A stretch of DNA of 62,632 nucleotides, filler included, from Dugesia japonica (Eukaryota), in the NCBI GenBank assembly GCA_001938525.1. It is 6 parts of 6 records of this genome, joined end to end, with 100 filler letters (N's around TTAATTAATTAA, not from the genome) between each part and the next. Parts side by side here need not be neighbours in the genome. Positions count along the whole stretch, not along the records: positions 47,258 to 62,632 come from MQRL01372838.1; 5 more parts are not named here. The stretch is one strand, 5' to 3'. A program made the position numbers and the translations under genes. Below the pieces are notes generated by a model, which saw nothing but the letters and a program-made list of their open reading frames with translations, searched no databases and was not told where the DNA came from. Shown here piece after piece: positions 2,101 through 62,632 of the stretch. Within the stretch, counting starts at the first letter, position 1, and the number at the start of each line of letters is the position of its first letter.

Positions 2101-2170
2101 AAAATGATATAAATACCAAAACCAATTTGAATAGTAGCAACACAAATAAAATAACAAGACAACAATTTTG

Positions 2171-3270: not shown

Positions 3271-3271
3271 A

Positions 3272-22590: not shown

Positions 22591-22672
22591 TCTAAAATAT
22601 ATAATATTAATGATAGGGCTAGAGAGAGATACTATAATAACAATAGATAAATATATATAGTTCTTTTTTATG

Positions 22673-23734: not shown

Positions 23735-24167
23735 TAGTGGTCAATTTGATTTTTTTAGTTTCTTTATTAATAAGTTTCTTTATTTCATCTTCTTGTTCTG
23801 TTTGTTGAATTTTTTGTTTACGATTATTTGTTGGATATAACGTTTCCCAACCTCCTTCTTGTGTGATCCACGCGTTAATCCCTTTATTCCAAAATCGATT
23901 AACTATTCGTTTTACAACCAAAATATTTTTATCCGGTTTCTCAACTAATTGTTCTCGATTCTTAAGTATTATATACGAAATAGCTGTGATTACTTTAATT
24001 TTATTTATTCCTTCTTTCATCATTGTTTTTATCACTTTATAATCATCAATTTCNGGATCTGCTATTATTAATTTGCTCACTTCTTTTATTATGAGTTTCA
24101 TGTCTTCGAATATCATTAATGCTTTATTCTGAGTTATTATGCAGTCATATAGATCAGCATGTACCAA
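23735..24167 (-). CDS. Bcl-2-like domain
   Basis: BH1-like MMKEGINKIKVITAISY and BH2 NAWITQEGGWETL (23844-23870). Confidence 0.72.
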
Positions 24168-24199
24168 TTTAATTAGACTTCTTATAAGTCCTTGATCTG

Positions 24200-25121: not shown

Positions 25122-25219
25122 ATCTTAGAACTCAATTCTCATATTTTTATAAGCTTCATTATCGATTACTTCAATAGCATAAGTTTCTCTTGTTTCTGGG
25201 CTGAATGATACATCTTTCT

Positions 25220-26405
25220 TCAGAATACTTCTAGAATCATTTGGTTTATTTCTACNNNNNNNNNNNNNNNNNNNNNNNNNNNNNNNNNNNNNNNNNNNNN
25301 NNNNNNNNNNNNNNNNNNNNNNNNNNNNNNNNNNNNNNNNNNNNNNNNNNNNNNNNNNNNNNNNNNNNNNNNNNNNNNNNNNNNNNNNNNNNNNNNNNNN
25401 NNNNNNNNNNNNNNNNNNNNNNNNNNNNNNNNNNNNNNNNNNNNNNNNNNNNNNNNNNNNNNNNNNNNNNNNNNNNNNNNNNNNNNNNNNNNNNNNNNNN
25501 NNNNNNNNNNNNNNNNNNNNNNNNNNNNNNNNNNNNNNNNNNNNNNNNNNNNNNNNNNNNNNNNNNNNNNNTTTCTGTTGTAATTGCTATAATTTCTTTG
25601 GTAATAATCCGTTTTAAATTTTACATCCTGCTCCTTTCTACTATCTTGACGATTTTGATATGCTTTCCTCATCTCATTCCATGACGATTCCTCATTGCTT
25701 GCATATATTTCAATTGCATATATTTGTCTGGTTTTATCTTTATGTTTTGTATTTGCCTCAATTTGTCTCGTTTTTCTTGTTAGTTCTTCTAAGTTTTTAT
25801 ACTCTGCTGCAATTAGAGCATCACGAATATATTTATGTGTCCCATTTAGAAATTGAAATTCTATAGTATTATCTCCTTTTCCAAAAGCTTGCTCTGCTAA
25901 CCTTGTTAATTTATATATATATTCGCCCACTATTTCATTTGTTAATTGTGTTCTATCTCTAAAGTTTTGTATACAAATTCTTTCTAATTCACTTGGAACT
26001 ATTATCTTTTCCTCAATTTTGCTATTAGATCATTCCATTTATCAGGTTTGGCATCCAGATTTTTATAACATTTTAATGCNTTTTAATACTGTATTTTAAT
26101 TCTTTTAAATACAGTGGCAATCTTTTAATTAATTCTGCTTCAGTCCATCCATAAGCTGTGGCACAGACCTGCATATGGTCAAAGTATTCATCGGCCTCCT
26201 CAGGTTTCCCTGCATAAAATTGTATTGGTAATATATTTAATGTACCTCGGTGTCCAAATTCACCTCCTACTTGATCATTAATTGGTAAATTTTTAAATGG
26301 CATATTCACAGTATTATTATTTGCTGCAGCCATTTTTTTGATCTCTCTGTTTCTCAAATTATATATTGTATTCTCTTCAATGATTATTCCTTCAGTTTTT
26401 TTCAA
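25220..26405 (-). pseudogene. Gag capsid (Ty3/Gypsy retrotrans_gag type), frameshifted, contains a gap
   Basis: FYAGKPEEADEYFDHMQVCATAYGWTEAELIKRLPLYLK; R.Q...E.VGEYIYKLTRLAEQAF...QFLNG. Confidence 0.85.
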
Positions 26406-27504: not shown

Positions 27505-27604
27505 NNNNNNNNNNNNNNNNNNNNNNNNNNNNNNNNNNNNNNNNNNNNTTAATTAATTAANNNNNNNNNNNNNNNNNNNNNNNNNNNNNNNNNNNNNNNN
27601 NNNN
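27505..27604. other. Artificial contig linker
   Basis: N44-TTAATTAATTAA-N44. Confidence 0.97.
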
Positions 27605-32913: not shown

Positions 32914-34261
32914 TAGGATTAAATTGAAAGTCTTGTCCGATAGAAAATAATATTTATTTAACCAATAAAGACAAAATGTAACTTGAGAAATATAAACAAA
33001 ACATCATTCGTGCGTGGATCTGAAATGTTAAAAATAGTCACTTTTAAGGTACACACACTTGCCAGTATTCTGGAATTTTTTTTATGCCATTAGCATAGAA
33101 TTCTGCAGGGTTTGAAGCGAACCAGGTTTCCAAATCACCGTTAACTTCTTCAGCAGAGTGATACGTTTTCCCACGAAGTGAGTTTTTCATAGGAGAAAAC
33201 TGGTAATAGTCGGATGGAGAAAGGTCTGGGGAGTATGGTGGATGTGGCAATACCGTAAAACCGATCTCAGCAAGCTTACTTCAAGTTAATCGTGGTCGAG
33301 CGTTGTCCTGGAGAAAATTGAAATTTTCAAAACGGTTTCCACGCAGTCGGTGTCTTTGTTGTCGAATCGCATCTACGACTTTGACCAACTGAGTGCAGTA
33401 AATTTATGCGTTTATGTTTTTTCCTTGAGGAAGTACATCACACAGAATAATTCCTTTCACATCTCAAAAAATGGTTGCAAGGTGCTTTTGTGCTGTCAAA
33501 CATCGATGAATTGATGTTGTTGGTTGATCAACGATCGTGATAAGATAGATTGGCATTGCCCCAATATACCCACACCTCATCCACCGTTATGAGTTGGAAT
33601 AAAAAGTCGTTCCGTTGGTGCATAGTCAATTATTCGCCACAAATTCTTTCCCTGTTGGCTTTATTTTCATTTGACAAAAAATGTGGCAACCATTGCCAAG
33701 TATTGCTTTCCCATTTTATGCAAGTGTCGGAGTATTGTTGTATGAGACAACGACAGCTCTTCTGCCATATTACGAGATGAAGCATATTTGATGTAAGTCA
33801 GAACCTCTTTGATTCGATCTTCTACATCATCTTTAAGCAATGGTCGCCCGCTTCTCTCTTCATCATCAACGACGAAATCACTAAAAATGAATTTTGCAAT
33901 TTTTCGCTGACAGTTTCTCGCTGACACAGTACATGTGCCAAGCATGGAGTTAATGTTCTTCTCAATTACAGGCGCATTCATTCCATCTTTCCACAAAAAA
34001 TACGTCAGCTTTTTTAAGTCGCTTCTGTTAAACTCCATCATATGTNNNNNNNNNNNNNNNNNNNNNNNNNNNNNNNNNNNNNNNNNNNNNNNNNNNNNNN
34101 NNNNNNNNNNNNNNNNNNNNNNNNNNNNNNNNNNNNNNNNNNNNNNNNNNNNNNNNNNNNNNNNNNNNNNNNNNNNNNNNNNNNNNNNNNNNNNTACATG
34201 TTGTCTTTATTGGTTAAATAAATATTATTTTCTATCGGACAAGACTTTCGTTCCAATCCTA
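32914..34261 (-). mobile_element. Mariner (DD34D) transposon, full length, decayed transposase
   Basis: ~65-bp TIRs (TAGGAT...GAAAGTCTTGTCCGATAGAAAATAATATTTATTTAACCAATAAAGACAA), TA flanks; ERSGRP, ITVDEVWV, QDNARP, HPPYSPDLSPSDY. Confidence 0.95.
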
Positions 34262-38492: not shown

Positions 38493-38592
38493 NNNNNNNN
38501 NNNNNNNNNNNNNNNNNNNNNNNNNNNNNNNNNNNNTTAATTAATTAANNNNNNNNNNNNNNNNNNNNNNNNNNNNNNNNNNNNNNNNNNNN
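38493..38592. other. Artificial contig linker
   Basis: N44-TTAATTAATTAA-N44. Confidence 0.97.
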
Positions 38593-42870: not shown

Positions 42871-44149
42871 AATCTGAAACAAAGCGAACGAAAACCTAAG
42901 TATAATTTAAATATTATTGTAAGTTGTAAAAATCACGGTTTAAAATCTTCTACAAATATATAAATAAAAACAACTATTGTACCTTAATTTAACCAAATTC
43001 AAAATAAAACTGTCAATTCTAGAATCGTTGTGCAACAAAGTAAAAAAATCAAAAAGTAATCTATTCTTTTAAAAACCTTGTTTCTTAAAAATATAGTATT
43101 TGAGAAACGCAATTTGGTTCAAAAATTACCAGTGATTGGAAATACTTCTACTACCTATTGACACGGATTAATAAATTTTCAAAATTAAATTCGTAAAGAC
43201 TAGCGGATGTCAAAACAAATTCATAAAATTCTATTTTACGGGTTCAATGGATTTTTTAAAAGAAGTTTTAAATACTTGAATAATTTTTCTTAAAACATTG
43301 ACTTTTTGCAGAGAAAATCCGGTTTCATAGAAAAATACCGGTTTGTTGTTTTAAGAAATGAAGGACTTGACTTTTTGGCAAAATTTCAATTTTGATCGCT
43401 TTCTATAGAATTCATTTAAAATAAAAGCTTCGATCAAATCAAAATTTTTTTTGTATTGATATTTGATAACAATTCGATATTTCGATTTAGTCTTCTTCAA
43501 AAATTAGCTTTATATGGGCTGAAATTATTAATTATTTCCTTATATCCCTCTTCTGTCTAACCTTTTCTAGATTTCTCTTTAGTCGTTTCCCTTTTTCTTC
43601 TTGTACCACATATCGTCATTCGTGAATTTTCTCAATTATTCGATAAGAACCTTAAATCTGTTTCAGCTTTCATTTGTTGTTTGAACCTTGATTTTGACAT
43701 ATTCTCCTACTTCGAAGTCTCTATTAGTAATCACTTCTGAACTGTTTTCTTTAGTTCTCCCTTAAACTTACCAATTTTCTCTGCTAAATTTCTTTCTAAA
43801 TACAATTTCAGTCGAGCTCATTGCAGTCATCGTCTTTGTTGTGTTCAATATATATTCATTGTCTAATCTGTTGTCATTCTCTCCTGAAGTGTGGCATTAA
43901 TTAAATCACTATTCATCCTGCACTGTCTATAATGAATGAATTCCATTAACAGTGGATGTCTCCAAGCAACTCCTCTACTGGTGGAGCCCTGTCTTTTGTG
44001 TGCTGCCTTTCGGAATCACTTCCATATATTTACTCATATTCATTGTCTGCATTGACTTCAGCTCCAATTGCATGTATTCAATTGTATCCGTTCCTGGTCC
44101 TCTATTAGTTAAAAATTTATTCAATATTATGTTTTCCAAGTAAAAATAG

Positions 44150-46020
44150 AGAATTTATTTCGGACATGGATGCGAGTTTCGACACGATTAGTGCAGTTCT
44201 ATCTTAAAGGGACAACAATGGACAAGAAAGAGTAATTGCATATGGGTCACACGCAATGACGAGTCATGAAAAAGGATATTGTACTACGCAGAAAGAATTA
44301 CTTGCAATGTACTACTTTTGTATTCTTTTCAAACATTACTTATATAGGAAGAGATTTATCCTTAGAACAGAACATAAAGCTATCACTGTTATGTTAAATT
44401 CCAAGAAACCGATTACATCAGTTTCAAACTTGGATTAATTATTTGAGCAGTTTAGATATAAAATTGGGATATAGAAAAGAATCGCTTCATACAAAATGCG
44501 GATATGTTGTCAAGAAGTAAATGCGATACATGTGCACAATGTTAAATGTCACATGAAAATCATAAGAGTGGAAAATGAAAAACAAGGATGTTAAATACAG
44601 TATGTATCCATGAGAAACAAGGCGATTTGGAGAAAATGATGAAGGAACATGGATACTTGANGATAAATTAGAAGAGGTTATAATGAGGAAAGGTAGCAGC
44701 GTATATGAAGTGTAAATATACCGCAAAACATTTGTAGAGCAAAGTACAAGAGGTTGTCCGAAGTTGTATAACATGCCAGAAAGAGAAACTGTGGACAACA
44801 AAAACGAAGGAAGAAACGAAAAAGACGCAGNNNNNNNNNNNNNNNNNNNNNNNNNNNNNNNNNNNNNNNNNNNNNNNNNNACTTTTGTATTCTTTTCAAA
44901 CATTACTTATATAGGAAGAGATTTATCCTTAGAACAGAACATAAAGCTATCACTTTCATGTTAAATTCCAAGAAACCGATTACATCAGTTTCAAACATGG
45001 ATTAATTATTTGAGCAGTTTAGATATAAAATTGAGATATAGAAAAGAATCGCTTCATACAAATGCGGATATGTTGTCAAGAAGTAAATGCGAAACATGTG
45101 CACAATGTTAAATGTCACATGAAAATCATAAGAGGGGAAAATGGAAAACAAGGATGTTAAATACAGTATGTATCCATGAGAAACAAGGCGATTTGGAGAA
45201 AATGATGAAGGAACATGGATACTTGANNNNNNNNNNNNNNNNNNNNNNNNNNNNNNNNNNNNNNNNNNNNNNNNNNNNNNNNNNNNNNNNNNNNNNNNNN
45301 NNNNNNNNNNNNNNNNNNNNNNNNNNNNNNNNNNNNNNNNNNNNNNNNNNNNNNNNNNNNNNNNNNNNNNNNNNNNNNNNNNNNNNNNNNNNNNNNNCAG
45401 CCGAAATGTTTGAACTGTTATTTAAAAAGTTTGTGAATCACTGCAAGAGACAAGAGGTCGAAAAAGATATGTTCGCGGTATAATAGATCACTGCAGTAAG
45501 TATATAGCTTTGATAGCAATGACAAGACAAGACAAACTTACCATACGGAAAGCAATAATAGAGAAGTGGATATTAAAGTTTTGGTGTCCGAGAGAAATTC
45601 AAGTTTATTGTGGAAGAGCATTTGAATCTAAATTAATAAAAGCTGAACATTGAATTACCCTCAGGTTTTTGAGTCCATATCATCATAACACAAATGGACA
45701 AATCGAGAAGCAGTTTAGAACTATGCGTGATATGATAAATGCGACACTTCAAGAATAGAAAACCTCAGATTGGGCTGATGTATTGCCAGAGATAGAATTT
45801 ACCTTGAATGCTACAAAACAGAAGACCGCCGGGAAAAGTCCTGCTGAAATCGTATTTGGAAAGAGAATACGCAGCGAAAAATGGTACAAAAGAGATTCAA
45901 GGTTGGTTATGAGGCTTTGGTAAAAGTTGAAACAAGAATCAAGATTGTTTTGAAGGACCATATAAGATAAAAGGAAAGGTTCACGATAGACGTTTTATTT
46001 TTTGAAGATACAATCGGAAA
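44150..46020 (+). mobile_element. Ty3/Gypsy RNase H-integrase fragment
   Basis: DAS..AVL, GQERVIAYGSHAM..HEKGYC.T.KELLA, RTEHKAI, SPYHHNTNGQIEK, SPAEIVFGK, FEGPYKI. Confidence 0.88.
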
Positions 46021-47157: not shown

Positions 47158-47257
47158 NNNNNNNNNNNNNNNNNNNNNNNNNNNNNNNNNNNNNNNNNNN
47201 NTTAATTAATTAANNNNNNNNNNNNNNNNNNNNNNNNNNNNNNNNNNNNNNNNNNNN
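47158..47257. other. Artificial contig linker
   Basis: N44-TTAATTAATTAA-N44. Confidence 0.97.
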
Positions 47258-48176
47258 GAGCCGCCGATCCCTCAGAAAACTCTCGGTACTCCCCCAGGAA
47301 GAATTATTAAAAGTGTGCATGTTACCCCGGCATTAATGTAAAAGGAAGGAAGAAAGCCAGAAGAGTTCGCCTATACTACAGCAAAATGGGTACTCTCACA
47401 CTCAGGAAGAGATAACCTAGCATAATAAGGGAAGACTTAATCAAGGAAATTAAAGGAAGTTTAAAGGAAGACTTATTTAACGAAAATTAAAGAAAGTAAA
47501 GCAAGGAAGATGATTTTAAGACTGTGATGACAAGTATGGAGCAGCATGATAGTAAAGTAAGTTTAAAATCTGGAAAAGGAGTGATTGCCTCCTCAGTAAA
47601 GACAATTAGGAGAAAAATTTATTCTAGAAACCCAAACCACAAGTATTACAAAACCAAAACCGAAGCACAGCGAGAAACCAACTAACCAGACTCTGACAAG
47701 AAGATTCCGACTCGGAAAATAGGAAACCACTTACAAGGTCCAACACAACGGGATTATTTACCTCAAGCTCAGTTCTAAAAGAAAACTAACTTTCGAGGCA
47801 AAAATCATCAAGGAAACTAAAGAACTCATCACTTTATTTGGACCAGGAAGAGAATATTTGTTGACTCAGGAAACCAGAATTCGACAAAACAGTATCCAAA
47901 ACTAAAACGTTTGTAACCATCAGCTCTAACAGTAGTCCGAGTGATAAGGAAAATAAAACTAACCCGAAAACCACATCCGGTAAAATTTCGGTAGCTAGTA
48001 ACTGATCAAGTGGGATAAGTTATACCTCAGAGGAATCAGAAATTACAGAAGTAACAGACAGTAATCAAGTAAACACCGACTCAGTGGTAACACGGTCAAA
48101 CAATTTAGAAACCGAAACACTCACATTAACAAACCAAGACCCGAAAATAGAAACTAATCTAGTAAAAGATAAAAGC

Positions 48177-49200
48177 ATGGCAAACAAAACTGAAAGCCAA
48201 CGACCAGAGTGGAAAATAAAATTTGATGGCGAATATTTTAGTGGAATACCAGAGAAGTTGGATGAATTTATCCAAAACTATGAAATGTACGCCAAAACTT
48301 GTGGTTGGGACGAAGAAGCAAAAAGAAAGCGGTTACCTGCTTATTTGACAGGAGTAGCTAAAACTGTGTTCTGGGATCACACTAAGGGCATGGAAGCCAT
48401 ACCCGAAATGGAAAGATGTGGTGAAAATATTAACCGATAATTTCCAAAATTTTAAGTTGACTGGCCAAGACTTCGAACAATTTACCAATCGAAAACAGCA
48501 GCGAGGAGAAACTCCACAGACTTATATGATGGAACTCTAGAGACGCGGCAAACTAGCCCTAGCAGATAAACTGGAAGATAGTAAAGTGCTAGCCATATTC
48601 TTAAATGTTTTACGCGATGAGAACGCCAAGCTAATAGTAAAGTTGAGTAAGCTAGTGACTCTACAGGATGCTCTAGCCACGTTGCGAATTGCAGCAGATA
48701 GACCTTCCAAACGGATATTCAAAGTTGAAGGACAGACAGAGGAGACCACACCAAGGATATCGGACTTCATACCTAACACCCAATCAATGATGAAAACCCT
48801 GACTCCAGGGCAAGAACGGAATAACAGGAATGATTGGCCCAACTACCCACGAGGAAATGGTGGAGGATTTAATATCCCTCGGAACAATTGGCAAAATAAC
48901 CGAGATATACAATGCAATACCTGTGGAAGAAGGGGGCATATAGCCCGCGATTGTAGAAGTAGAGGCATTATTAATAACAACAATCGATTTTGTACCTATT
49001 GCAAGAAGACCGACCACAATGTAGAAACGTGCTTTTTGAAAAACCCAACTGTCTTTTATAAGTGTAACAGAAGAGGGCATATGGCCAAGGAATGTCCAAG
49101 CGGAAATCAAGCAAGTTACAATCGAAACCCGAATGCAAATCTGGATAATCTAATGCAGAAAAACGAGAGATTGAGGCAGCGAGTAAATCAAAATAAAGGA
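48177..49200 (+). pseudogene. gag: Gag capsid plus three CCHC zinc knuckles
   Basis: FSG.PE.LDEFI..YE......GWDE......LPAYLTG.A; CNTCGRRGHIARDC, CTYCKKTDHNVETC, (F)YKCNRRGHMAKEC. Confidence 0.93.
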
Positions 49201-49619
49201 CAAGTAAACTTGGTGCACCAAAGTACTTTCGATAACGTGTACCACAATGCCCAACAAGAAAGTGATTGGCTTAAATGGCAAAACCAGGATTTGCAAGTAC
49301 AGCAGGAAAGACTAGCAAGGAGAAACTTGCTAAACGAACCACACAAGAATCAATGTAATATGATCAGAACCCATAGACAAATCTATAACCAACATGACAA
49401 AACCACGGAAGTTATCGAAATGGAAGACACGCGGAAACAACTCTTGATTACATCACCAGAATTCGAGTGGACTAATGAAATCATCTATAAAACAATAGAA
49501 ACATCAACCACAACCACCTGGAGAAGACGAGTGACGAATCAGTTACTTCGATTATACCAACACCCACAAGTACATACAAAAGTAAAAGCTAATTGGCAGA
49601 AAATAATATCGGATTACAT

Positions 49620-52600
49620 CGCCGAGCTCAATAAAGAAACTCAGTTAGAAGACTATGAATTCGAAATTCAATATGTATGGCATAACAACCCGGAGGTAAT
49701 CCCGAAACGACTAAAGCTGGTACTAAAGGAAATGACAGTTCGTCACCTAAAAGAAGCTATTAACTGAATAAAATGGAGAGAATTAAACGGTATTAAAGGT
49801 ATGACGGTAAATCCGTTTCTCGAATCACCACCATTTAACGATCAACAACAATGGAATGGAAAATGGAATAGGCACAGACTGCAAATAGGTAATATATGAA
49901 TCAATATTCTTCTAGATGATAAGAATCTAATCTATTACGGGGCACAACCTCACGAAACAACCGATATCAAACTGATAAACCGGGGATTGGTCTTCAGACT
50001 CCAAATAGTAATTCAGGAGATAGAAACAGACGAGTTATATCATAACCTCAAAGTAACATTTATAAAAGAAATAGTTCCTACTCAGGCTCAAAACTACCTA
50101 CGAAAACGATTTGAAAAGTTGAGACTAAGGGACTATCCAGACCTGGAACAAAAGGAAGCCTCGCGATTATCCTTAGCCCGAATTAACGAGATACTTATAG
50201 CTGCCCAGAAACTCCATGATACGATAAAGAGGGGTGTATACTTGAAGTTGACCAATCGATTAGTAGAATTATTAGAAGTTATGAAATTGATCACAAATTT
50301 TGAAAGCGATTGGACAGAATGGTTACCTGTACATTATGATTTGGTAATATCCAACATGGGATTATCAGAATACAAAGTATGGTTGTATAACCCAGAAGGT
50401 AATATGAAACTGACACTCACGGGATTAATGGTAAAAGATCTGGAATCGGCACTTAATCAAGCAGGTTATCCATGTGTAACTGATAAATATGTATGTACTC
50501 CAAGTGCAATAGTGGATTTTAATGCCAGAAAAAGACATCTCTACGATTTTGAAGTAAAGCTAGGAGAAGAAATTGATCTTGTAGTATTGGACAAACACCC
50601 TGGTATTGATTATGACATATGGGTAACGAAAACCGGAAGATCGGCATTAGAAATCATGGGGGAATGGAATATCTATATAAACAAGAAGTAGAACCTATAA
50701 AATTAAGATACTTTCCACAGTATTGGGAAAGAAAGACAAGCTAACAAAGGAGGAAAGGAAGCAGTTACTGATGACGCGTAAAGATTTTCTCAAACAACGA
50801 TTAGAGAGAAGAGACGGGAAATGCAACATGATAAGAATGCGACAAATGCCGTCAAGGGAAGTAGTAGCAATGCGTAAAGTGGAGGAAATGGTTAAACTAT
50901 TCCATCAGAGTCAGTCTCCTCAGCAAAGAGGGAAGCATAAAAAAGGTGGATATGATAGTATTGGAAGGATTAACTATCCGACATGTTATAAAACCAAATA
51001 AGAAGTGGTTATGGCCAAAATCACTCAAGTCATATAAAATGCAGGCGGGAGCAACAATGATCATATTGGCCAAGAAAGAAGATCATATTTTCCTACACGA
51101 TATTAAACCAGGAGAGACCACTGAAATCAAGCTACGCCTCGGAAAATGACAATAGATATTCCTATACCAAAAATGCCGGATACCGATCAACTTATATTCA
51201 ACATGATGAGTCTGTATATACAAGAAATATTACCGGTAGAAAATGAACGTCTCATAAATACGTACGGAGAAAGCAAAGCCCAAGTAAACATGGTCAGGAA
51301 TAATGGATCCAAAATCCCAGTCCTGACATCGGATGAGGAGGAGGAGGAAGAAACCGCAGACGATACCGTCAAACCCAAACTATTACCGTTTAAACAAGAA
51401 TTTGTTGGCCCTTTCAGGTCCCCTCAAGCCAAGCGGATATCAAAGATAATTTCTGATTTCTGTTATTTTCTGGGAAAAATACCCAGGGCAAAATTTTGGA
51501 ATGCAATAAATTTACTAACGGATTTGTCAAAATATACCGAAATAGTAAAAAAGAACGTAATTAGTGGAAATCTATACTCAAGTTGCATACTGGTGCAGTT
51601 AAGGCCAGTGCCAAGGGAGATGATTTTCAGGTCACCATAGAATATTGGACACCAAACAAGAAACCCAGAAAGGAACAAGAATTGGCCTTAATGTACATTC
51701 CACATTTCGATAGCACAGGAGCATCGGAATTACAAGAAACTATAGAGTCGTTGGATATAGCTGATCAACAGAGTGGCTACGTAATCACAAGTGACCATTT
51801 GTGATTTCCTATCAAGTTTGAAGGAAACAGCATTTAATGAACGTAGGGTTGAGATCAGGGGAAAATACTTTTCTCTAAATACAGAAACCCGAATATTACA
51901 CTCCAGGTCCAGTAAAGTCTATGAAAGAAGTATTACGACAACTCGAAGATTTATACGAACAAGAAATCGGCAGTGGAAAACTGTTTGAAGAAGTCGACGA
52001 TAGAACAATGGAGATAAATATTGAGTCATGGGAAGATAGTAAAACTTGGGGAAGCCTGCCTCGAGTAATAATGAAAATACTTAAGACACGACAAAGTTAT
52101 GCAATTAATCCTTAAGTTAAATCAACTACGAGCTATAAGTCGAATGCCAGGAGACGTAATGGATGTAATATTAAATAAAGCAGTTCGCATGATAACTAAT
52201 GAAGCAGTTGACGTAATAATCAAATTTCCGGATGAAAGCGAAATTCATTGGCAGGTCCAAATGAATGAAACATGGGCTAAGTTACGGAAAAGGATTATAA
52301 AATTTATGAACCAACAGTGTATCCTTGACGAGGAGGAAAATGGAACGCAACCATTAGTACAAGAAGACGACATAGTGCTCTATTATAACCAAGTAATAGA
52401 ACCAGACCAAATGAGATTGCCAGTGAAATATATCGGGATTTCGCCAGGAACTAAATTGAAAATGTATGTAACAGCAAAGAAGGCGGAGAGACGACGACCA
52501 CGGGTCTCGGAGAAAAATGGAAACAGGAAGCCAGAGAAGTAGTGGAATATTATATCGAGGAGATACATCCACTAGTATTCGCAAGAGCTAAGCTCCCTAA

Positions 52601-53120
52601 ACAAGAACAGGGTAAACCACGAGTGGAGATGGTAGCAGTTCTGACAAACACACCCGCCAAGGATCAGAAGCCAGAGGACAATTTACCAAAATTATTCGAA
52701 TTGCTAGTCGGTGATAAGTTAATAAAGCCAGAAATCATACGTCGATCCAATATAATCCTACAACAAGATCTGGCAGTAGAAGACCTCAGAAAACTACGAC
52801 GGTTAATTATGGCCATCAAGGTATCCCATGTGTGGGATCCGATTCAATTCAATAAAATTTTGGTTTAATGGCGAAAAGCGGAAATGGGACAAGCCACTCC
52901 CTTGAAAATCAAATTTAGAATAATCGATCTGGAAAGAGACAAGATTACGGTTAAGATACCGGTATATAATACGGTAAAACACTTACGGGATAAGCTACCA
53001 TTTAAGCCACCCGGATGAGGATGAAATAATAGAAGATACCACTCCAATCGGTCTAATGAAAATAAATTTAGTTAAACCTAATACATTATGGATTTTCCAG
53101 AATTAGGAGGTACTCTCACT
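49620..53120 (+). pseudogene. Accessory polyprotein region with multiple ubiquitin-like (beta-grasp) domains
   Basis: TVRHLKEAI...LIYYGAQP; MVKDLE...LYDFEVKLGEEIDLV; VDVIIKFPDESEIHWQVQMNETWAKLRKRI...YIGISPGTKLKM; TVKIPVYNTVKHLRDKL. Confidence 0.6.
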
Positions 53121-53624
53121 CGGAAAGACGCAGACCCTTACAAGGCAGCAGATAAAACGAGACCAATAAAAAACACAAAATATTCACCTCCAACTAGGAA
53201 AAGTGAAGAAATAAGGGTCAAAGGGTCAACACGAAGTAAAAAATATGATCCTAGCAAGGTAGATTTGGATGAAGAAGATGTATTGGAAGAACAACCATTA
53301 TCACCAATATTGAGTAGAATAGCAAAAGAATTGCCCTCCTCAGTTATGGACGTTTTAATGGATACAAATCACCCCTTAGAAATGGAAAATACTATAGAGA
53401 CAGAAGAGGAAGAAGTGCCGCCAAAACCAGTACGCACCCGAGTAGATGTAGAAACAATTACCGAACCTCCCATTTGAGGCAGACCAAGAACAAAACCTCC
53501 GGGAAATCCGGAGGAGGAGGAAGCATTAAAACAAAAACGATTAGCAACATCAATAAATCACTAAACCAAGAGATTAGCAACGGTATCACAGGAAAGAGAT
53601 CACGAGAATTCAGCGGATGAGGAC

Positions 53625-54015
53625 ATGCCCACAGAATTAGTAATACGGCAACTATTGTTAATGCTTTACCCAGAGCTAAAGATATGGATTGGTAAATTCG
53701 AACTATCCGATGGCCTCAGACTGCTTGCAAAGGAAATAGAAGCGGCCATCAGGAAATTTCCCGCTACTAAAGGAACTAGTTATGGTACAAAAGACAACCT
53801 AGAAGGGGTAATGGATGAGTTGCTACAGGATTCATCAACGAAAGGGAGAATAGTGGAGTCTTTAGCGCATTTTTATTAATCAAACACATCTATCAATCGC
53901 TAGAAGCAAGCCGTCAAAAAACTTCATTCTTAGTAAATTACCGATATTGGATTTAATGCAAAACAAAATTGGGCCGCTGATAAAGCAGCAAGGAGGATGG
54001 AAAAGTTTATTGAGA
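53625..54015 (+). pseudogene. Bcl-2-like domain (frameshifted)
   Basis: BH3-like LRLLAKEIE, BH1-like VMDELLQDSSTKGRIVESL, BH2 LIKQQGGW/EKFIE at 53977-54015 (alternate frame). Confidence 0.75.
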
Positions 54016-54139
54016 CCATATGCCCTAAACCACAGCCATCACATGAAAATGCAACTAGAGTAATAAGGATTGTTCGGGACCAGTTAAATGAGATCGAGAA
54101 TGGATGGGCACGTGAGCCTCGCGGAAATTCTTGGCAAGC

Positions 54140-56424
54140 ATTAACAACTACAATACTCTTGTTATTCTTAATTATGGGCAGAAGTGAAGCCATATTGGCA
54201 TATGACTGCAATAGGATGCAAGTTGGGAAGGAAGTATTCTCATTAGTAGATACTGAGGAATGTCCAGACGTAAACCCGAAGAAAATCTCACTCCGTAATA
54301 ATTCCGTTTATCACTTATATCAGGAATCAGATTATTACAAGGCCCAAGTACGCGAATGTACGGTAACAATGAAGACATTTATATTTCATTGTGGTTACCA
54401 CAGTTATACCTCGATAATCGATCCGAGAACAGTGAGACATCCAGTACATCTAACGGGACAACAATGCAACGCAGGGTTCACAACTGGTAAAATTACTATC
54501 AAACATGGAACTCAGGTTGTCGCCAAGAAAGGACATGTAATCGACCAACCAATAGAAGCAGCAGGGAGTATATCGTCACATAAAGGTAACTGTGAATATG
54601 GTACGTACACTATACGAGGAAAGGTATGGCAGTATGCGGTAGCCATTGAAACCTACACAGTAGAACTCAAAGAATACGAAGAATTTTTCGATGCACAGGA
54701 TTTAACTATGAAAGGAAGGTCATACTGCAAAGCAGCGGATGGATCATGTAATACAGGTACGTCGACGTTGATATACCAAGTAGATCACCAGGATTGCAAG
54801 AAGCAGTGTTTAATGAATACCAAGGACAACGTGTTATAGCACCTATTGATCAAGCTCCCAAGGAAAGTAATCTAAAAGATAGAATAGATAACTTTAAAGA
54901 AACAATAAAATCGGGCCCGAGGTCATACGATCAGCAATGGCACACCACGCCCACGGTGTTAATGTCTTCAGAACAAGATGAGACAATCCGATTAATCAAA
55001 GGAAATTCTATGTCTAAATGTGGCCAAATAGTATACAAAACAAACTATAAAGGAATATTTGTATCAGAATATCGAATAAAAACGGCACAAGCTGCAGTAA
55101 TGTCCCAAGATATCAAGCTGCACCTCTATGCCAATAATAAAATGGACAACTTATTCCACCGGATGCAGGATACTATCGGACGAATGTACCACGACCTTAT
55201 ACAAAACGATTGCACATTAAACAAGGAAATATTGAAAGCTAGCAATGGCGGTTACAAATCCAAATAGTTTAATCCCGTTACTTCCTCTAGAAAAAGGACA
55301 ATTTGGGCGAGTAGTAGGTGAAGTAATGTACCTATATAAATGCAAGGCGATAGATGCAGAATTTTCATTCAATCCCAAAAACTGCTATAATGAGATAGAA
55401 ATCATCCACAATAATGAGAAACGTTATGTCCAACCAATTACTCGAATAATATCACCGCTGGGTTATAAGCCAAATATCATAAATTGTTCTAATGTATTTG
55501 AACCACAATACATAATGACAGATGGGTCCTGGATAAGGTTTCCACAACAAAAAAGGAGTCGAACCACGGAAATTCTCAATGTTACGATGAAATAAGGGAA
55601 TGCAATTTACGCCAATCGATATAAATTAAGAAGAAATCTATAGCAGGGAAGATTTAGAAAAAGCAAGGGAATATATGTTGTTTCCGGTTCAAAGGATGCA
55701 AATCCTATCGAATATAGTACAATTAACCAGTGGAACTAACATTGACGGACGAGTAAATTACGATGCACTCTTATCAGCGGATCATTTTCAAAAAGCCACC
55801 GAAAATGTAATGCGGAAGATGTGGGGAAGATTTATAATATTTGGACAAGCGATGGCAGGATTGCTGGGAGTCATGTTGATAATTTCAGTAACACGGGTAG
55901 TAATTAACCAATTGTTTGCCTGTTTTGACATATACAAAAGAGAAAAGAAAGTGAATTGGAAAATGGTAACTGGAATATTCCCATTCCTAGCCAAAACCAT
56001 AGTGCTTAATAGTCACTCTAAAGACATCGAAAGGATAAAACGATTTATTCGGAAGCTAGGACAAATAAGAGGATTGGACAAGGAGGTCATAATGCAACTT
56101 AGATTATTGTGTGAAGAAATGAGTAATGCTAAAAAGAAAATATCATATTTCAACCAATTCAAAGAAAGATTCAAGAACAAAAGCGAGATTAGTAGCAGTA
56201 GTGACGACGACAGAGGAGGAAGCAGTGGAATACCACACGTGCCTAGTTATAAAACCGCCATGGAATACGATGCAGAATTTAAAAGACAACAATATGAAAA
56301 AATCAGTAAGATGCAACGATTAAGAAATGCATTAAAATTTGGAGGAAATGAAAATATACCAGCACCAGCACAAATGTACTATAACGCCTATCCGCAACAC
56401 GGATGGCAACCTATGAATCAATAA
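54140..56424 (+). pseudogene. env: Envelope glycoprotein, chuvirus (Jingchuvirales) G-like, with signal peptide and C-terminal TM
   Basis: SEA/ILAYDC...SLVDTEEC, HCGYHS, LY.N.K, GEVMYLYKC, C.NEI, PITRII, TM FIIFGQAMAGLLGVMLIISVTRVVI. Confidence 0.85.
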
Positions 56425-56469
56425 TCACAACAGGTATGGGCACCAGGTCCCATATATAACACCCCTTAT

Positions 56470-56985
56470 ATGGGTTCACCACAAGCTCGTAATATGGCAT
56501 TATTAACAGAGAACAATTTATCAACGATTGACCGAAGAATTACTGACCAAAATTTGTACTCTCCAAATAACCAAATTACTGAGGACGATAAACTAGAAAC
56601 TCAAACTGTGTGCATGATGATCTCTCCGCGAGCAAAACTATTACAAAAAAGAATAAAAATAGATGGAAGATGGGTACTAGCCATTATCGATACGGGAGCA
56701 AGTACGACGTTAGTCCACAAAAGGGTACTAGAAGACTATCGACTACTCCGAATAACAATTCCTAAAGGAGTTATCATCACAGTCTCGGTGGAAAAGATCT
56801 CACTCGTTGGACAAGCAATATGTGCAGTAGAAAGTGACGGACTACGTCTATGGCGTAAACTACAAATAATGAATGAACTAACTTTCGACTGTTTATTAGG
56901 ATTGGATCTCTTACCACGCCTTTGTCCAGAAGGGATATTAGACCTGCGGAAACTAACCATAAGGGAGAATCATGATCGAGAATAA
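56470..56985 (+). CDS. Retropepsin aspartic protease 1
   Basis: AIIDTGASTTLV and CLLGLDLL; same frame as the env tail, separated by one TAA. Confidence 0.9.
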   Translation: MGSPQARNMALLTENNLSTIDRRITDQNLYSPNNQITEDDKLETQTVCMMISPRAKLLQKRIKIDGRWVLAIIDTGASTTLVHKRVLEDYRLLRITIPKGVIITVSVEKISLVGQAICAVESDGLRLWRKLQIMNELTFDCLLGLDLLPRLCPEGILDLRKLTIRENHDRE

Positions 56986-57142
56986 GCGCCGGTAGGGTAT
57001 CAGAAAACTAGAATAATAACCCAACAAAGACGATTAGCCATGGAATCAACCAACGTACAACCAAAAACCGTGACTCTCACCAGGCAGAGGCGAGCAAGGT
57101 AACTCAAACCAAAAGCGTGAGAAAACTACAAGCACATCCACC

Positions 57143-58153
57143 ATGATAAGAGACGATTGGATAAGGTTTCAAGAGCGAGAACCTAGATGGAAAAATCAAA
57201 AGCAGCCTAAAACCAAGCATAACTCTTCAAACGTGGTATGTACAAGTCTCAGCGGGGGACCTGTATTAACAATTATGATTAAAATCAATGGTAGACCTAC
57301 AACGGCATTATTGGACACAGGAGCAACAATCTCACTATTATCAATAGAAGAGATCGCGATCACGGAATATAAAAACATATTACCTACTAACACCACAGCA
57401 GATGTGACAAACGGAAGCAGTCTTAAAATTTTTGGGGAATTAGCTTATGAGGTTGAATATCAAGACAACAAAATTAAACACAAAATGATAGTAGTAGAAA
57501 TGGCTGGAGAGTGTATTTTGGGTACAGACATTCTCCCAATTTTGATGAAGGATGGCATATTAAACTTTTCCACATTACAGTTGCAATCCTTGGAGGGGTA
57601 TACCCACGTTAAAGATCATGAAGTATTCACTACAGAAGAAATCTTGGTATCTAGTAGATGCCAAGTCTATTGCGTAGTAAGTACGAAAAGTGCATACGAA
57701 GGATATTGCTATTTTGAACCTTATGACGGATTTGCACAACAATATGAGTTACCTACGGCAGGAGGAATAACCACAGTAAATAAAAGCGGAGAGGTACCGG
57801 TTAGCTTGGTCAATTTCACTGAAAAGGATATCAAAATCAAACCGAATTCCAGGATGGGCAGACTAACTCCCATCGAACCAGAAGCCGAAGAGATAGAGGA
57901 AATAGTCGCCGAACTCGAAATAGATAGAACATTTAAGGTGGGAACAGAAACACTATCAGATGATCAAAAACAGGCAATACTACAATTGTTGGAAGAATTT
58001 AGGGATATCTTTGCATGGACTGATGAAGAGCTAGGTATGTGTACAGCTACAATGCAAACCATTCCCTTAACAGATGAAACACCAAGCAAGCAGAAACCAT
58101 ATGCTATGACAGTGGAGAAAAAGGAGTTTGCAAACAAGGAAACGGCCAAATAA
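57143..58153 (+). CDS. Retropepsin aspartic protease 2 plus beta-rich spacer before RT
   Basis: ALLDTGATISLL and CILGTDIL; V.LVNF....I.I......G spacer; LLEEFRDIFA. Confidence 0.9.
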   Translation: MIRDDWIRFQEREPRWKNQKQPKTKHNSSNVVCTSLSGGPVLTIMIKINGRPTTALLDTGATISLLSIEEIAITEYKNILPTNTTADVTNGSSLKIFGELAYEVEYQDNKIKHKMIVVEMAGECILGTDILPILMKDGILNFSTLQLQSLEGYTHVKDHEVFTTEEILVSSRCQVYCVVSTKSAYEGYCYFEPYDGFAQQYELPTAGGITTVNKSGEVPVSLVNFTEKDIKIKPNSRMGRLTPIEPEAEEIEEIVAELEIDRTFKVGTETLSDDQKQAILQLLEEFRDIFAWTDEELGMCTATMQTIPLTDETPSKQKPYAMTVEKKEFANKETAK

Positions 58154-60700
58154 GTAAAAATCGGTGTGATAGAACCCAGTTGCTCACCATGGCAATCACC
58201 AGTGGTACTAGTCGATAAAAAAGACGGGACACAGCGATTCTGTATCGATTACAGGAGATTAAATGTGCAAACTAAAAAAGATACGTATCCGTTACCGGAT
58301 ATCAATGAATTACTTCAACTACTGTGTAACGCTAAAATATTCACCACATTGGCTACTCGCAAATACAGATCAAACCAGAGGATAGAGAAAAAACAGCCTT
58401 TTCTACAGGCAAAAACTTATATCAGTTTATCCGTATGCCATTTGGGCTTACCAATGCATCAGCTTCTTTTCAACGAATGATGAATTATGTGACTCATGGT
58501 ATATCTCAATGTATGGGCTATATTGTCGACCTATTGATCTATTCACCAACATTCGAGGGACATTTCAATGATTTACGTAGTGTATTTATCCGATTGCGGA
58601 AATGGAATTTGAAAGTTAAACCCACCAACTGCGAATGGGTGAAGAATAAGGTAACATATCTCGGACATTTGATATCGGATAAAGGAAAAGAGCCTGATCC
58701 TCGAAATAACGAGAAAATACGAAATATAGCACCGCCAAATTGTGTGCTCAAAATACAAGAATTTCTCGGTCTTGCAAACTATTATCGCAAATTCATTAAG
58801 GATTTCACTAAAACTGCGAAACCAATGCAGAAATCGGTCAAACAAAATACTGCCTTCATATGGGAACCAGAGCAACAGCAATCATTTGAGACGTTACGGG
58901 ACAAATTATTAATGCACCAATTCTGGTACATCCAGATTTCTAAAGGCCCTTTATATTAGCCACTGACGCTAGTGGTTATGCGATGAGCGCAGTATTAAGT
59001 CAACTAGATGAACAAGGAAGAGAAAGAGTGATCGCATATTTTAGCAAAAAATTTCAAGGAGCAGAATTAAATTACAGCACTACAGAACGGGAAATAATGG
59101 CTATCGTGAAAGCCACCAAACATTTTTTATCTCTCATACATGGTCACGAGGTGTTAATCTATACGGATCACCTACCAATCACATCCATGGCTCAGAAACC
59201 ATTGCGATGGAACAGAATAGCAAAATGGCAATTAGCAATGCAAGATTATTGCCATCTGTTGAAGTTTAAAACGGGGAAAGCGAACTCAAATCCCGATTGT
59301 CTGTCAAGAATCGGTGGACCAGAAACTACGAAGAATACACCAGAAGATACAGAAACATTTACATTACGGGAATTATTAGAGAAAAAAGTAAGAATGGTAT
59401 ACTTTATATTAGCCGAGGATAGAAATTTCGATGGGCTAAAACAAGCACAGGCCGACGATGAGGAAATTAAGATCATCATGAAATATATGGAGAATTATAA
59501 TTTAGAGAAGTTAGAATGCGAACCTAAGATGAAAGAGCACTTNNNNNNNNNNNNNNNNNNNNNNGCACTTACCAAAGGATGGTTGACAGCTCAAGACGGA
59601 GAGAATACCATATTGGGTATCCCTAAAGCAAGGCGGGATAAATTACTTGAACAATATCACAATGGTGTACTCGGCGGACACATGTCTCATAAGAAAACCG
59701 AGTCAAAATTAAGACAGAAATATTACTGGCCACACATGACAGAATCTGTAAAAAAATAGATTGCCAAATGTTAAATATGTGCTGCCAGGAGAGGAACAGG
59801 CAAAAGAGTAAAAGCATTATTGAAACCAATCGCAGTACCAGCAGCGCCAATGGAAATCATCGCTATGGATGTAGTTGGGCCATTACCACCAACCCTAAGT
59901 GGAAATATTTACATACTTAACATAATGGATTATTTGTCCAAATTCCCCGAGGCGTTTCCAATGAAAAATCAAAAGGCCACAACTATAGCGGACACAATGG
60001 TACGGAAATCTTTCAGTCGATATTGTACACCCAAGAAAATATTAACGGATCAAGGAAAAAATTTCATGAGCAATATATTGGCAGAAATATCGAATTTTCT
60101 TAAAATCCACCAGTTACGGACATCACCTTATCATCCCCAAACAGATGGATTAACGGAACGATTTAATAAAACTCTGATCAATATGCTGTCTAGTTATGCG
60201 CAAAAAGAACAGAATAATTGGGACAAACATATTCAGCTATGTCTATTTGCCTACCGTATGAGTGTGCACCCAGCCACTAAATACACTCCGTTCGGTCTTA
60301 TGTATGGAAGAGAATGTAACATGCCAATCGATCTAGAATTTCAATTACCTATAACACAATATCAAGACGAAACCAATTTCGTGGCGAACTTCAAAGAAAC
60401 CCTGCAAAAGATATGGAAACAAGCCAAGGAGAACGTGGGATTTTACCAAGAAAGTTACAAAGATTTACATGATAAAACTGCAACGCAACATTCCTTTTAA
60501 AAAAACGACGTGATATTGATTAATTTGCCCGATATTTGTGTTGGCACTACGTCAAAACTGAAAAGGCCATGACAAGTGCCATACGAAGTAATTGAGGTAA
60601 CCGAAACCAATCTCAAAGTTCGAAAGAAAGGAAATCTCTTGGAAAAACCTAAAATATACCACGCCAACTTATGTAAAAAGGCTGCAACGATGGAGGAAGT
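58154..60700 (+). pseudogene. pol: RT-RNase H-integrase (Gypsy order), inactivated
   Basis: SPWQSPVVLVDKKDG..RFCIDYRRLN, MPFGL.NA, YIVD in place of YxDD, TDASG, TDH, GGH...YYWP, MDVVGP, TDQG, YHPQTDGLTERFN, .PY motif. Confidence 0.96.
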
Positions 60701-62632
60701 TATGCCATCCACCAGTATTACACTGACTACGATGGAACACAGAGAACCAGGTAGGCCACGTAAGTCGGAAAATATGAAGCCGCACATTTCACGTAGTTAT
60801 CCATTAAGATCACAACAAACTATGATAATACTCGGGAATTCATCCACACCAATATTTGTGTTAGGTCAATTAAGTCAGCGGGTTAAAGTATTGGGTACCA
60901 CAACAATCTATCCTATAATTCCACGAGGAACACAGTCACCAGTACCATAAAACTGTTGCGCTCACCTATATCGGGTGACATACCCTATCTCACCAACACT
61001 ACTGGAAGCAAGTTGTCTTACCTGCATACGGGAAATACAATCAGTTTTGAAGTCGACATTACGAGACGTCGCTGGTCATAGATTTTGGTTGTTGCAGCAA
61101 GATGAATTTGGTGGATTTACCTATAAAACGCATGACAAACTGACAGTGCAAGCACCTTTGACGTCTTGCGAATTAGACACTCTATGCGAACGTTGTATCG
61201 GTAATTATAATGAAACCCTCACTCGAGCTATTGAGAATTTCCATGTGATATTAATAGTGTGGGATTGGTTGGTACTATGGTCTCAACCAGTTGATCATCC
61301 ACCATGGAGTGGCTTAGAGCCATTATCAGGAAAAAGAAGTCTCAACGAGAACGCTGAGTCTGAAGAAGATGGGGAAGGGGAACTAATGAAGAAAGCTGTG
61401 AAGTCGGAAACGGACATACAACCAAAAGACGATGAAAAGATAGAAACAGAGTTACANAAAATAACGAGATTATTGAAAGATGGCGTATTAAAGTATGCAG
61501 ACAAACAAAGAAAAGAAAGGAAGTTGAAAGAAAGCGGAGCATCACGTCAGGACTTTCATAAAATTGGCAACGAAAATACGAACACAAGGGATATTGCGCT
61601 AGACACCAAAGGATTAAATATTTCGAATAAACTAGTTACGCTGAAAATGACTAAGACATCAGATATTAATCATCCGCCCCAAGTTCAAACTACATTATCT
61701 ATGAATCCACTATTATGTCACAAGAAATTAAACATGTATCTTTTGGTTTAGACAATCAAATGCGTCAGCCACTGGCAGTTGAAGCTATGAATGCTACATA
61801 CTATACAATCACATGTCAGGGGAACAAGACACCAAGATCCGAAGAAAGTTGTAATAACATTAACTATACAACTTGTCCGCTGTCAGCACTGCAATCGGAA
61901 GAGAATTGTTTGCAATGTATCAAACAAACACAAAAAGTATTAAAAAATGCGCTAAAGGCCATTTACGATCAAAGAGCATGCTTATCCAAACCAGAAAATT
62001 GGTTCAGAAAATACTGCGATGGGTCACAAATCAAATTACCCATTCAAGCACCAATTCATCAATCTTTCATCAAAAAATAATGCATGCCATGTACAGATAT
62101 CTATAGTCAGGAATTATTAGCGTCAATTCAAGTATTTCACCATACGCTAGTACAATGGAACTGGATCAGAGTATATAAACCTTTGGAGATCCAATTACCA
62201 TGAAAAAGACTGAGCCAACCATTTTAAACAAATACAATCTTAAAANNNNNNNNNNNNNNNNNATACAATCTAAATAAGTGGCTTCCAGAAAAATGGAACC
62301 AATCAACATTGTGAACACTCAGAAAGGATTACAAAGACAAGTGACATCAATGAGAGAAGCATTTCAGGATCAATGGAATGAAATGGAGAAAAAGTGGAAA
62401 CAATTAGCCAAAATAACGCCAAGAAGGGCAAGAAGAAAGGAAATGAAACTAGTACAAGACGAGATGAATCAAACCGAACCAAGAAAATCAGAAAATAAGT
62501 CACCACAAGGAAACAAGAACGGGATTACAACAGAAATGCTAATCAAAATAGCCTTATGGTTATGGGCGGTATTCAACACAAGTTGGGATTATGGCATATT
62601 AATTTGGTTGACAATGAAAGTTATCGGAAATA
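60701..62632 (+). pseudogene. Post-integrase extension: AT-hook, two Cys-rich repeats, hydrophobic segment at the window end
   Basis: PGRPRK; SCLTCIREIQSVLK..QAP..CERC versus NCLQCIKQTQKVLK..QAP..CMPC; same frame as integrase up to 61751. Confidence 0.6.

Follow-up and report, generated by a model that had tools for sequence, protein, structure and literature searches.

How a viral fusion glycoprotein comes to stand between Gag and Pol in a Ty3/Gypsy element, and whether all of these parts were once made as one chain, is the question raised by positions 48177-62632 of the window, meaning the whole stretch of 62,632 nucleotides from Dugesia japonica that was analysed. The first-pass annotation proposed a single ancestral polyprotein of more than 4,000 amino acids that was threaded through the ER. 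Our analysis suggests that the region is probably one decayed Ty3/Gypsy element of the Burro or GAG-ENV-POL kind, in which gag, cargo domains, env and pol likely formed a single ER-crossing polyprotein; the source of this Burro-type copy is likely a planarian flatworm.

Domain order and extent of the element

The element runs from Gag with its zinc knuckles through two Ubl-like units, a Bcl-2-like domain, a signal-like stretch, a class III glycoprotein and a transmembrane (TM) stretch to two proteases (PR), a dUTPase-like stretch, reverse transcriptase (RT), RNase H (RH) and integrase (IN):

47258..48176, + strand: upstream leader, possibly part of a 5' LTR; multi-copy in DNA contigs, preceded by the gap 47158-47257
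48177..49200, + strand: Gag, capsid-like start (zf-CCHC E 1.3e-9, Pfam); one frame change and one stop inside
49201..52194, + strand: coding-like stretch of about 1,000 codons with several frame changes (codon-usage path)
52195..52491, + strand: ubiquitin/SUMO-like unit 1 (a weak 14.8 bits against the relatives' Ubl profile, 0 of 1000 shuffles)
52893..53103, + strand: ubiquitin/SUMO-like unit 2, frame change inside (a weak 14.3 bits with X at the break, 0 of 1000 shuffles)
53478..53489, + strand: GRPR motif, AT-hook-like core only (motif scan); a stop adjoins
53775..54021, + strand: Bcl-2-like domain, BH1-like and BH2-like stretches in separate frames (15.8 bits, E 4.7e-7, against a profile of six database relatives, read across the frame break with X; 0 of 1000 shuffles)
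54141..54197, + strand: internal signal-peptide-like hydrophobic stretch (Kyte-Doolittle 19-mer 1.66)
54198..55830, + strand: class III fusion glycoprotein ectodomain, gB/chuvirus type, in four frames (PF24664, Pfam)
55834..55890, + strand: transmembrane-like stretch closing the ectodomain (19-mer 2.24, the strongest hydrophobic stretch of the element)
55891..56640, + strand: env tail and linker to protease 1 in one frame, with a TAA at 56422-56424 inside
56641..56955, + strand: aspartic protease 1, DTG motif (Asp_protease E 2.4e-6, Pfam; family profile E 1e-18)
57266..57577, + strand: aspartic protease 2, DTG motif (gag-asp_proteas E 2.3e-7, Pfam; family profile E 1.5e-19)
57659..57871, + strand: dUTPase-like stretch (PF00692 E 2.4e-4, 21.3 bits against a cut-off of 22)
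57947..58900, + strand: reverse transcriptase with one stop, one frame change and a degenerate catalytic motif (RVT_1 E 3e-17)
58944..59250, + strand: RNase H (RT_RNaseH E 8.8e-33)
59619..60680, + strand: integrase with H2C2, core and C-terminal part; four stops (Integrase_H2C2 E 3e-13, rve E 3e-13)
60681..62632, + strand: coding-like extension behind integrase, cut off by the window edge (codon-usage path, motif scan)

The pol order PR-RT-RH-IN, with an H2C2 and rve integrase, is of the Ty3/Gypsy type (Pfam), and RT-RH is 30-46% identical to named and unnamed Gypsy polyproteins. Pfam places a gag-env-pol order on a Ty3/Gypsy pol. The domain order first described, in which env stands behind Gag and ahead of Pol, is borne out from Gag to IN; a dUTPase-like stretch that lies after protease 2 and before RT had been overlooked. 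The element had been ended at 61751, but coding-like sequence continues to the end of the window; along the codon-usage path it measures approximately 4,525 codons up to 61751 and some 4,800 if followed to the edge of the window. No partner repeat of the 47258..48176 leader, no tRNA gene and no host gene was found within the window. A second element in the window, which retains the Gag-Ubl-Bcl-2-signal stretch, no longer has the env body.

The Gag carries two intact CCHC knuckles (48913-48954 and 48991-49032) and a degenerate third at about 49054-49095 by motif scan; the Pfam zf-CCHC match falls in the fragment 48541-49767, and the region matches the N-termini of relatives by tblastn (e.g. P0162, E 1.6e-5). 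No Pfam family was matched in 49201..52194 at E<0.05. What had been called a Ubl array is reduced to two detectable units ahead of the Bcl-2-like domain, whose weak scores come from a profile for which the Ubl of the relative P0165, supported by Pfam, was the seed, while the other three of the five candidates failed against that profile. Unit 1 also matches UCH_UBL1 (E 0.048, Pfam), and its Atlas leads, Rad60-SLD at 0.87 and ubiquitin at 0.86, both stay below 0.9. The proposed AT-hook is present as a GRPR motif, but as a bare one beside a stop; a GRP[RK] motif stands upstream of env in 7 of the 22 relatives searched. The Bcl-2-like domain, which sits directly ahead of env, is real but split over two frames, and single-frame searches of the window gave no Bcl-2 match. 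Relatives match Pfam Bcl-2 weakly, and a model of this stretch in the relative P0002 matches Bcl-2 folds (Z 6-7.3). The window fragments, decayed and cut by the window end, gave no Pfam match to MATH, BIR or ankyrin.

Between 53937 and 56424, four successive Pfam matches to PF24664 (Monjiviricetes_fusion; E 4e-33 to 3e-11) identify the glycoprotein; they cover positions 5-226, 245-347, 350-458 and 478-601 of the 653 in the profile. P0002, which is 40% identical to the window over the first env piece, has an env model with a pLDDT of 85 that matches herpesvirus gB (E 6e-14, Z 10.4). A word-indexed search of proteins of 402-2000 aa with this first piece gave no match; a HMMER search did find relatives. 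The signal-like peak of 1.66 hardly exceeds the hydrophobic peaks within PR and IN (1.51-1.64); nevertheless, 22 of 23 relatives have such a stretch at the same place ahead of the conserved env start motif, and relatives, like the window, have one TM behind env.

Behind env, Pfam matches the aspartic protease twice, in the fragments 56425-56985 and 57074-58153, and tandem proteases are found in 8 of 13 stop-free env-pol relatives. Integrase similarity is carried to about 60680 by tblastn with relatives. The extension behind it contains a second GRPRK motif at 60750 and a twice-repeated Cys-containing stretch; it matched no Pfam family and did not match the second luminal domain of the relatives. 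These have a second, FnIII-like membrane protein behind integrase, whereas the window is too short there to show one. Pfam and PDB sequence searches gave no name for that luminal domain, and its model is of low confidence (pLDDT 47.7).

Decay and copies of the family

Over its 4,525 codons, the 48177-61751 copy has accumulated approximately 18 frame changes and 17 stops by the codon-usage path. As the first-pass annotation had it, RH, IN and the downstream sequence share one frame, although with five stops inside. The family is multi-copy in DNA contigs, whose alignments to the element are piecewise, with no contig spanning it whole. The stops at 49897, 53562, 55627, 56422, 56983 and 58151, six of the 17, are absent from 96-100% of the aligned contig depth among the matches listed (the best 40 of 1,958 and 40 of 80). 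Raw RNA reads at 55500-57400 are few (14, 0 and 9 partial), all less than 95% alike, and are no gauge of expression or splicing, the run X6 being RNA by guess. The window copy is a dead genomic copy of a many-copy element and, being broken throughout, cannot be the infectious retrovirus that had been suggested.

A probable single polyprotein and its alternatives

An intact ancestor with one ORF of more than 4,000 aa, env lying between gag and pol, is supported by the near-private stop behind env and by 13 stop-free database proteins in which a single chain carries PF24664, PR, RT, RH and IN. In 5 of these, Pfam also finds a Gag marker ahead of env-pol; continuity of env on its 5' side is seen in relatives only. 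The relative P0165, for example, has 4,057 aa in the order CCHC-Ubl-Bcl-2-like-env-Ank-PR-RT-RH-IN. The 11 closest relatives are 44-46% identical to the window over RT-RH. Furthermore, an RH-IN query alone retrieves 44 long proteins, of which the 9 at 41-44% identity all have PF24664 and the other 35 lack it. No relatives were found among viral contigs, and four metagenome loci are env-less Gypsy elements at 34% identity.

The way in which such a chain could be made is suggested by its hydrophobicity pattern, which fits ER threading. The internal signal stretch would lead the polyprotein across the ER membrane, and the env TM would bring it back to the cytosolic side. A cut by signal peptidase ahead of the glycoprotein would leave Gag-Ubl-Bcl-2 in the cytosol, held by the signal stretch, which may double as a Bcl-2 tail anchor; the second window element, with its Gag-Ubl-Bcl-2-signal stretch and without the env body, fits this role. 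The ectodomain is predicted to form a trimeric class III fusogen on the luminal side, while PR-PR-dUTPase-RT-RH-IN, tied to the env tail, would reach the particle via Env and not as Gag-Pol, after which the element's own proteases would free the enzymes. Intact family members might then be released by budding, as enveloped particles that move from one cell to another, and the Bcl-2-like and Ubl-like cargo may prevent death of the producing cell or weaken control by the host. Taken to its full extent, this leads to a tentative proposal that the clade consists of single-ORF enveloped reverse-transcribing viruses, the chain crossing the membrane four times and comprising a class III fusogen and an FnIII-like attachment protein behind integrase, with the enzymes in a cytosolic loop, entering via Env and freed by duplicated proteases, and with the env signal anchoring a viral Bcl-2.

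A single polyprotein might instead serve an intracellular retrotransposon that makes no infectious extracellular particles and buds into internal membranes or passes from cell to cell. The fixed 1:1:1 ratio of Gag, Env and Pol and the bulky cytosolic tail would be unusual for released virions, and the literature passages searched report neither particles nor cleaved products. We consider this unlikely, as the fusogen is whole, its cysteines are conserved, the gB-like fold is confident in a relative, and env has been kept in step with RT in a clade of about 45% RT identity.

It is less probable still, indeed quite improbable, that a programmed stop, frameshift or splice sets unequal amounts of Gag, Env and Pol. 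The env tail and protease 1 do share a frame with a single TAA between them at 56422, as first described, and this could be taken for a read-through signal, all the more since 26 of 589 in contig depth keep it. It is missing, however, from the other 563 (96%; 17 contigs, DNA run X1), and is thus nearly private to the window copy. In addition, the 13 relatives run from env into PR stop-free, and the published Burro ORF1 has 4,873 or 5,140 aa (PMC6431247).

The relation of env to pol was further addressed by two trees, both quick, without bootstrap and with no named Burro sequence included. The window RT-RH, on a long branch (1.22), is placed in an env-bearing set (14 rows, SH-aLRT 98), and the window env in a polyprotein-env set (20 rows, SH-aLRT 96). 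The two trees have six sub-groups in common and disagree on P0009 and on the pair P0167/P0168. The single-chain env-pol of the 13 relatives, together with these largely agreeing trees, indicates that env is no nested insertion. A separate env gene or a later insertion, for example of chuvirus origin, into an ordinary Gypsy element is largely refuted and hardly credible: chuviruses and BEL/Pao elements (P0073) do share the PF24664 family, and a frame change and a stop do part env from its neighbours in the window copy, but all nine closest pol relatives have env at the same place, a search for direct repeats found none of at least 9 bases joining the env flanks, GC and GC3 match pol, coverage of the env bins resembles that of the gag and pol bins in each of three DNA runs, and none of the 15 joints listed, of 142, removes the whole env.

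Comparison with known systems

The structural polyproteins of alphaviruses and flaviviruses are single chains that weave through the ER by means of internal signal and stop-transfer sequences. The window element would be alike in this respect if the predicted topology holds. These viral proteins are nevertheless unrelated to it, have class II fusogens and involve no reverse transcription.

The chuvirus-derived glycoprotein of mosquito BEL/Pao elements (Dezordi et al.) belongs to the same family, PF24664. In the BEL/Pao-like P0073, env lies behind the integrase tail (DUF5641), and the env tree places it apart from the set of polyprotein envs. A BEL/Pao identity was rejected for the window element, in which env precedes PR and pol is of the Gypsy type.

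Closer parallels are found among the GAG-ENV-POL errantiviruses that Chary and Hayashi (2026) describe in three phyla (PMC13524379). Their Platyhelminthes HSV/gB-type members, especially Smed_errantivirus_5 and _6, share the gene order and the gB-type env between a signal stretch and a TM, but they are intact while the window copy is dead. Over an ungapped 164 columns, 75 positions of the Smed_errantivirus_5 env are identical to the window (46%, a hand count by eye), which exceeds the 31-38% in 11 of the 12 pairs listed among Smed 1-6 and, by this by-eye comparison, brings the window env inside the range of variation of the Platyhelminthes set. A single polyprotein, tandem proteases and cargo domains are not discussed in the searched text of that paper.

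A close likeness by description is also to planarian Burro (GYPSM1), in which Arkhipova and Yushenova (2019) reported an in-frame env between gag and pol (PMC6431247). Both have a Gag with 2-3 CCHC knuckles, Ubi/SUMO-like and BCL2-like domains, an env in frame between BCL2 and PR that matches mononegavirus fusion proteins, and a dUTPase-like stretch between PR and RT; the Burro ORF is near 4,900-5,100 aa, and the window has about 4,800 codons and is still coding-like at its end. Burro elements exceed 30 kb in total length, and the window shows neither the LTRs nor the full length of its own element. Burro also has MATH, which can sit in a separate ORF, BIR, ankyrin and Smc, none of which was detected in the window part, whereas the two Ubl units and two proteases of the window go unmentioned for Burro in section 7 of that paper. 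Decayed Burro copies with stops and frameshifts are on record there as well. The Burro-type guess was thus right as to kind, given also the likeness to Smed_errantivirus_5, but the novelty implied for the layout falls away, since it was in print for Burro in 2019 and for GAG-ENV-POL elements (PMC13524379).

To conclude, the layout is already known for planarian Burro, and the broken window copy adds little to it. The single-polyprotein gag-env-pol design is among the oddest known in retroelements, its biogenesis being a prediction. What the window contributes is a deep branch within the clade, whose RT is about 45% identical to that of its nearest relatives in the databases. The family-wide features that it brings into view are duplicated proteases, a possible role of the signal stretch as a Bcl-2 anchor, and a second membrane protein behind integrase; the first and the last of these go unmentioned in the searched text of the published accounts, whose figures may show them.

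Layout and decay of the main element

The window is joined from short contigs, and the neighbourhood of its parts across the N gaps is therefore unsure. AT-richer host DNA reaches the last gap, and beyond it lie ~15 kb at 36-40% GC with a strong A excess.

9734-9833, 18255-18354, 27505-27604, 38493-38592 and 47158-47257: 100-base N gaps with the same 12-base linker
48177-62632, plus: main element, a Ty3/Gypsy retroelement of the Burro or GAG-ENV-POL kind

A Pfam scan of 24 stop-to-stop fragments of the main element returned, in order, zf-CCHC, PF24664 four times, two aspartic proteases, a dUTPase-like domain, RT, RNase H, H2C2 and rve. The four consecutive pieces of PF24664, the Monjiviricetes fusion glycoprotein, span profile positions 5-601 of 653. 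The first-pass annotation had proposed a giant Gypsy polyprotein with env between Gag and Pol; its order of Gag/CCHC, env, PR, PR, RT, RH and IN stands by Pfam, while its AT-hook proved in a motif scan to be a bare GRPR, a motif found 5' of env in 7/22 relatives. Of five ubiquitin-like (Ubl) candidates, two pass on a profile seeded with the Pfam-supported Ubl of the relative P0165 (14.8 and 14.3 bits, matched by 0/1000 shuffles each), and the other three failed the profile/shuffle test and were rejected.

As had been noted, a single TAA at 56422 separates the env tail from protease 1 within one frame, and RH, IN and the downstream fragments have a common frame, though with five stops. Between 48177 and 61751, a path traced by codon usage across the three frames, which is approximate and misplaces the break in the Bcl-2-like domain, requires ~18 frame changes and runs through 17 stops; the codon-usage signal stays coding-like up to the window end. 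RT has a degenerate catalytic motif, and the third of the zinc knuckles is incomplete. This copy is dead.

Several further pieces were seen in the window. Six contigs have an A-rich loose end at 47296, and 47258-47770 is the deepest of all bins in a run guessed to be RNA; these might mark an LTR end or another repeat. Env-less-looking Gypsy fragments lie at 17400-15720 (minus, RT-RH) and 44120-45870 (plus, RH-IN). The pieces at 515-4340, 17900-18220, 20447-21648 (plus) and 33667-34206 (minus) are Maverick/Polinton-like or mariner-like by look, the former with an A32-like ATPase (E 6e-3) and polymerase-like ORFs judged by eye, the latter with HTH matches at the transposase start.

A probable single ancestral reading frame

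Other copies, relatives and trees support a single env-pol ORF in the ancestors. In DNA runs of the same organism, 20,000-26,000 short contigs per run match the main element, mostly 85-95% alike and covering all 30 bins. Six of the 17 stops fall within the contig matches listed, and each is absent from 96-100% of contig depth; the TAA at 56422 is missing from 563/589 (17 contigs). Each of three DNA runs has one contig that omits 54079-54730 at the env start, so a genomic copy lacking this stretch exists.

With the first env piece as HMMER query, 246 proteins were found, one cluster including a 4,844-aa member; the domain scan covered 16 of the 150 proteins listed. Env, PR, RT, RH and IN form a single stop-free chain in 13 relatives, five of which have a Pfam Gag marker ahead of env. 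A search with RH-IN only among proteins of 2,488-7,919 aa gave 44 matches, and PF24664 is present in all 9 closest (41-44% identity) and in 0/35 others (26-34%).

A quick RT-RH tree (49 rows, P0154 left out) places the window, on a long branch, among the 13 env-bearing rows (SH-aLRT 98), and an env tree (40 rows, P0094 left out) places it among the polyprotein envs (support 96), with P0124 outside. P0009 and the P0167/P0168 pair take differing places in the two trees. P0009 (2,627 aa, env-PR-RT-RH-IN) is filed under a Flavobacteriaceae MAG and likely derives from animal DNA that was binned with a bacterial genome. A nested insertion of env is disfavoured: no direct repeat of at least 9 bases marking one was found, env GC3 is like that of pol, and six sub-groups are common to both trees.

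Predicted membrane threading, proteases and cargo

Among hydrophobic 19-mers in the coding fragments, one scores 1.66 just 5' of the env start and another 2.24 behind the ectodomain, with three weaker or equal peaks (1.51-1.64) inside PR and IN. In 22/23 relatives the conserved env start, A/G-Y/F-D-C, is preceded by a hydrophobic stretch whose last residues are small, and those long enough have a TM-like peak ~530-560 residues past it. The env model of P0002 (70-row alignment, pLDDT 85) resembles herpesvirus gB (Foldseek E 6e-14; Z 10.4, rmsd 9.0, 430 aligned). From established membrane biology, we infer that the polyprotein of the main element would be translocated into the ER at the internal signal stretch and cut there by signal peptidase, and that the env TM would act as stop-transfer, leaving pol in the cytosol, tethered to the env tail.

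At least two protease-like domains lie 5' of RT in 8/13 relatives. The double protease is therefore a family trait, one that may help a membrane-tethered enzyme to dimerise. P0151 (4,844 aa) has as many as seven protease-like domains, five ahead of RT and two behind integrase, and six other relatives also have such domains after integrase.

Past integrase, all 12 long relatives (P0029, which ends inside integrase, was left out) have two more hydrophobic stretches, 100-390 residues apart, followed by a short tail.

C-terminal parts of P0151, P0162, P0163, P0165, P0167-P0169, P0172, P0173, P0005, P0009 and P0015: post-integrase pair

The pair looks like a signal and a TM in 11/12, P0015 being less clear. 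The Cys- and Thr-rich, putatively luminal stretches between them have only weak similarity to one another (5 pairs at E<0.01), and Pfam and PDB sequence searches gave them no name. One of them, modelled at low confidence (pLDDT 47.7), resembles fibronectin type III arrays (best E 1.5e-5, TM-scores ~0.15), a lead towards a putative second, FnIII-like membrane protein. The window up to 62632 gave no match to the putatively luminal stretch. A bolder reading, for the family and not for this copy, would have two surface proteins, four membrane passes and Pol carried by Env.

The Bcl-2-like stretch before env gave no match in a single frame; its BH1-like and BH2-like parts sit in different frames, and against a profile built from six database relatives, the stretch read with an X at the break reaches 15.8 bits (E 4.7e-7), beating 1000/1000 shuffles. 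Pfam Bcl-2 matches of the relatives are weak (P0002 E 1e-3, P0083 2e-3, P0055 1e-2), and the modelled P0002 stretch reaches Z 6-7.3 against Bcl-2 proteins, values common for helical bundles. The BH2-like motif lies shortly before the env start (51-87 residues in six relatives, ~68 codons in the window), and thus the env signal stretch could also serve as a Bcl-2 tail anchor.

26420-21820, minus: second, distantly related element with a Gag-like start, Ubl-like and Bcl-2-like parts, a signal-like stretch and the opening residues of the env start motif

This element has no DNA similarity to the main one. Its Ubl-like unit matches the family profile at E 2.5e-7, and its Bcl-2-like domain is clear (57 bits). 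Past the env start motif, with neither env body nor pol, an acidic stretch is followed by a RING finger ORF (Pfam E 1.6e-7). The element appears to be a Burro-like derivative that lost its interior by deletion and retained the anti-apoptotic and ubiquitin cargo.

Published counterparts

In the text passages searched, no account of tandem proteases, a second membrane protein or ER topology was found. PMC6431247 places env in frame between the Bcl-2-like domain and PR in planarian Burro elements. PMC8532177 reports Burro1 transcription upon PIWI loss, PMC13465017 cites a 2026 study on an anti-apoptotic IAP of Burro1, PMC11410931 mentions Burro in passing, and PMC13524379 describes gB-type errantiviruses with GAG-ENV-POL order from three phyla (Nematoda, Bryozoa and Platyhelminthes), including six from S. 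mediterranea. By hand count, the env of the main element shares 75 identical positions over 164 ungapped columns with Smed_errantivirus_5 of PMC13524379, which makes a planarian host likely. The initial observation is real and its outline reading correct, and the main element is a further, decayed representative of a type already in print.
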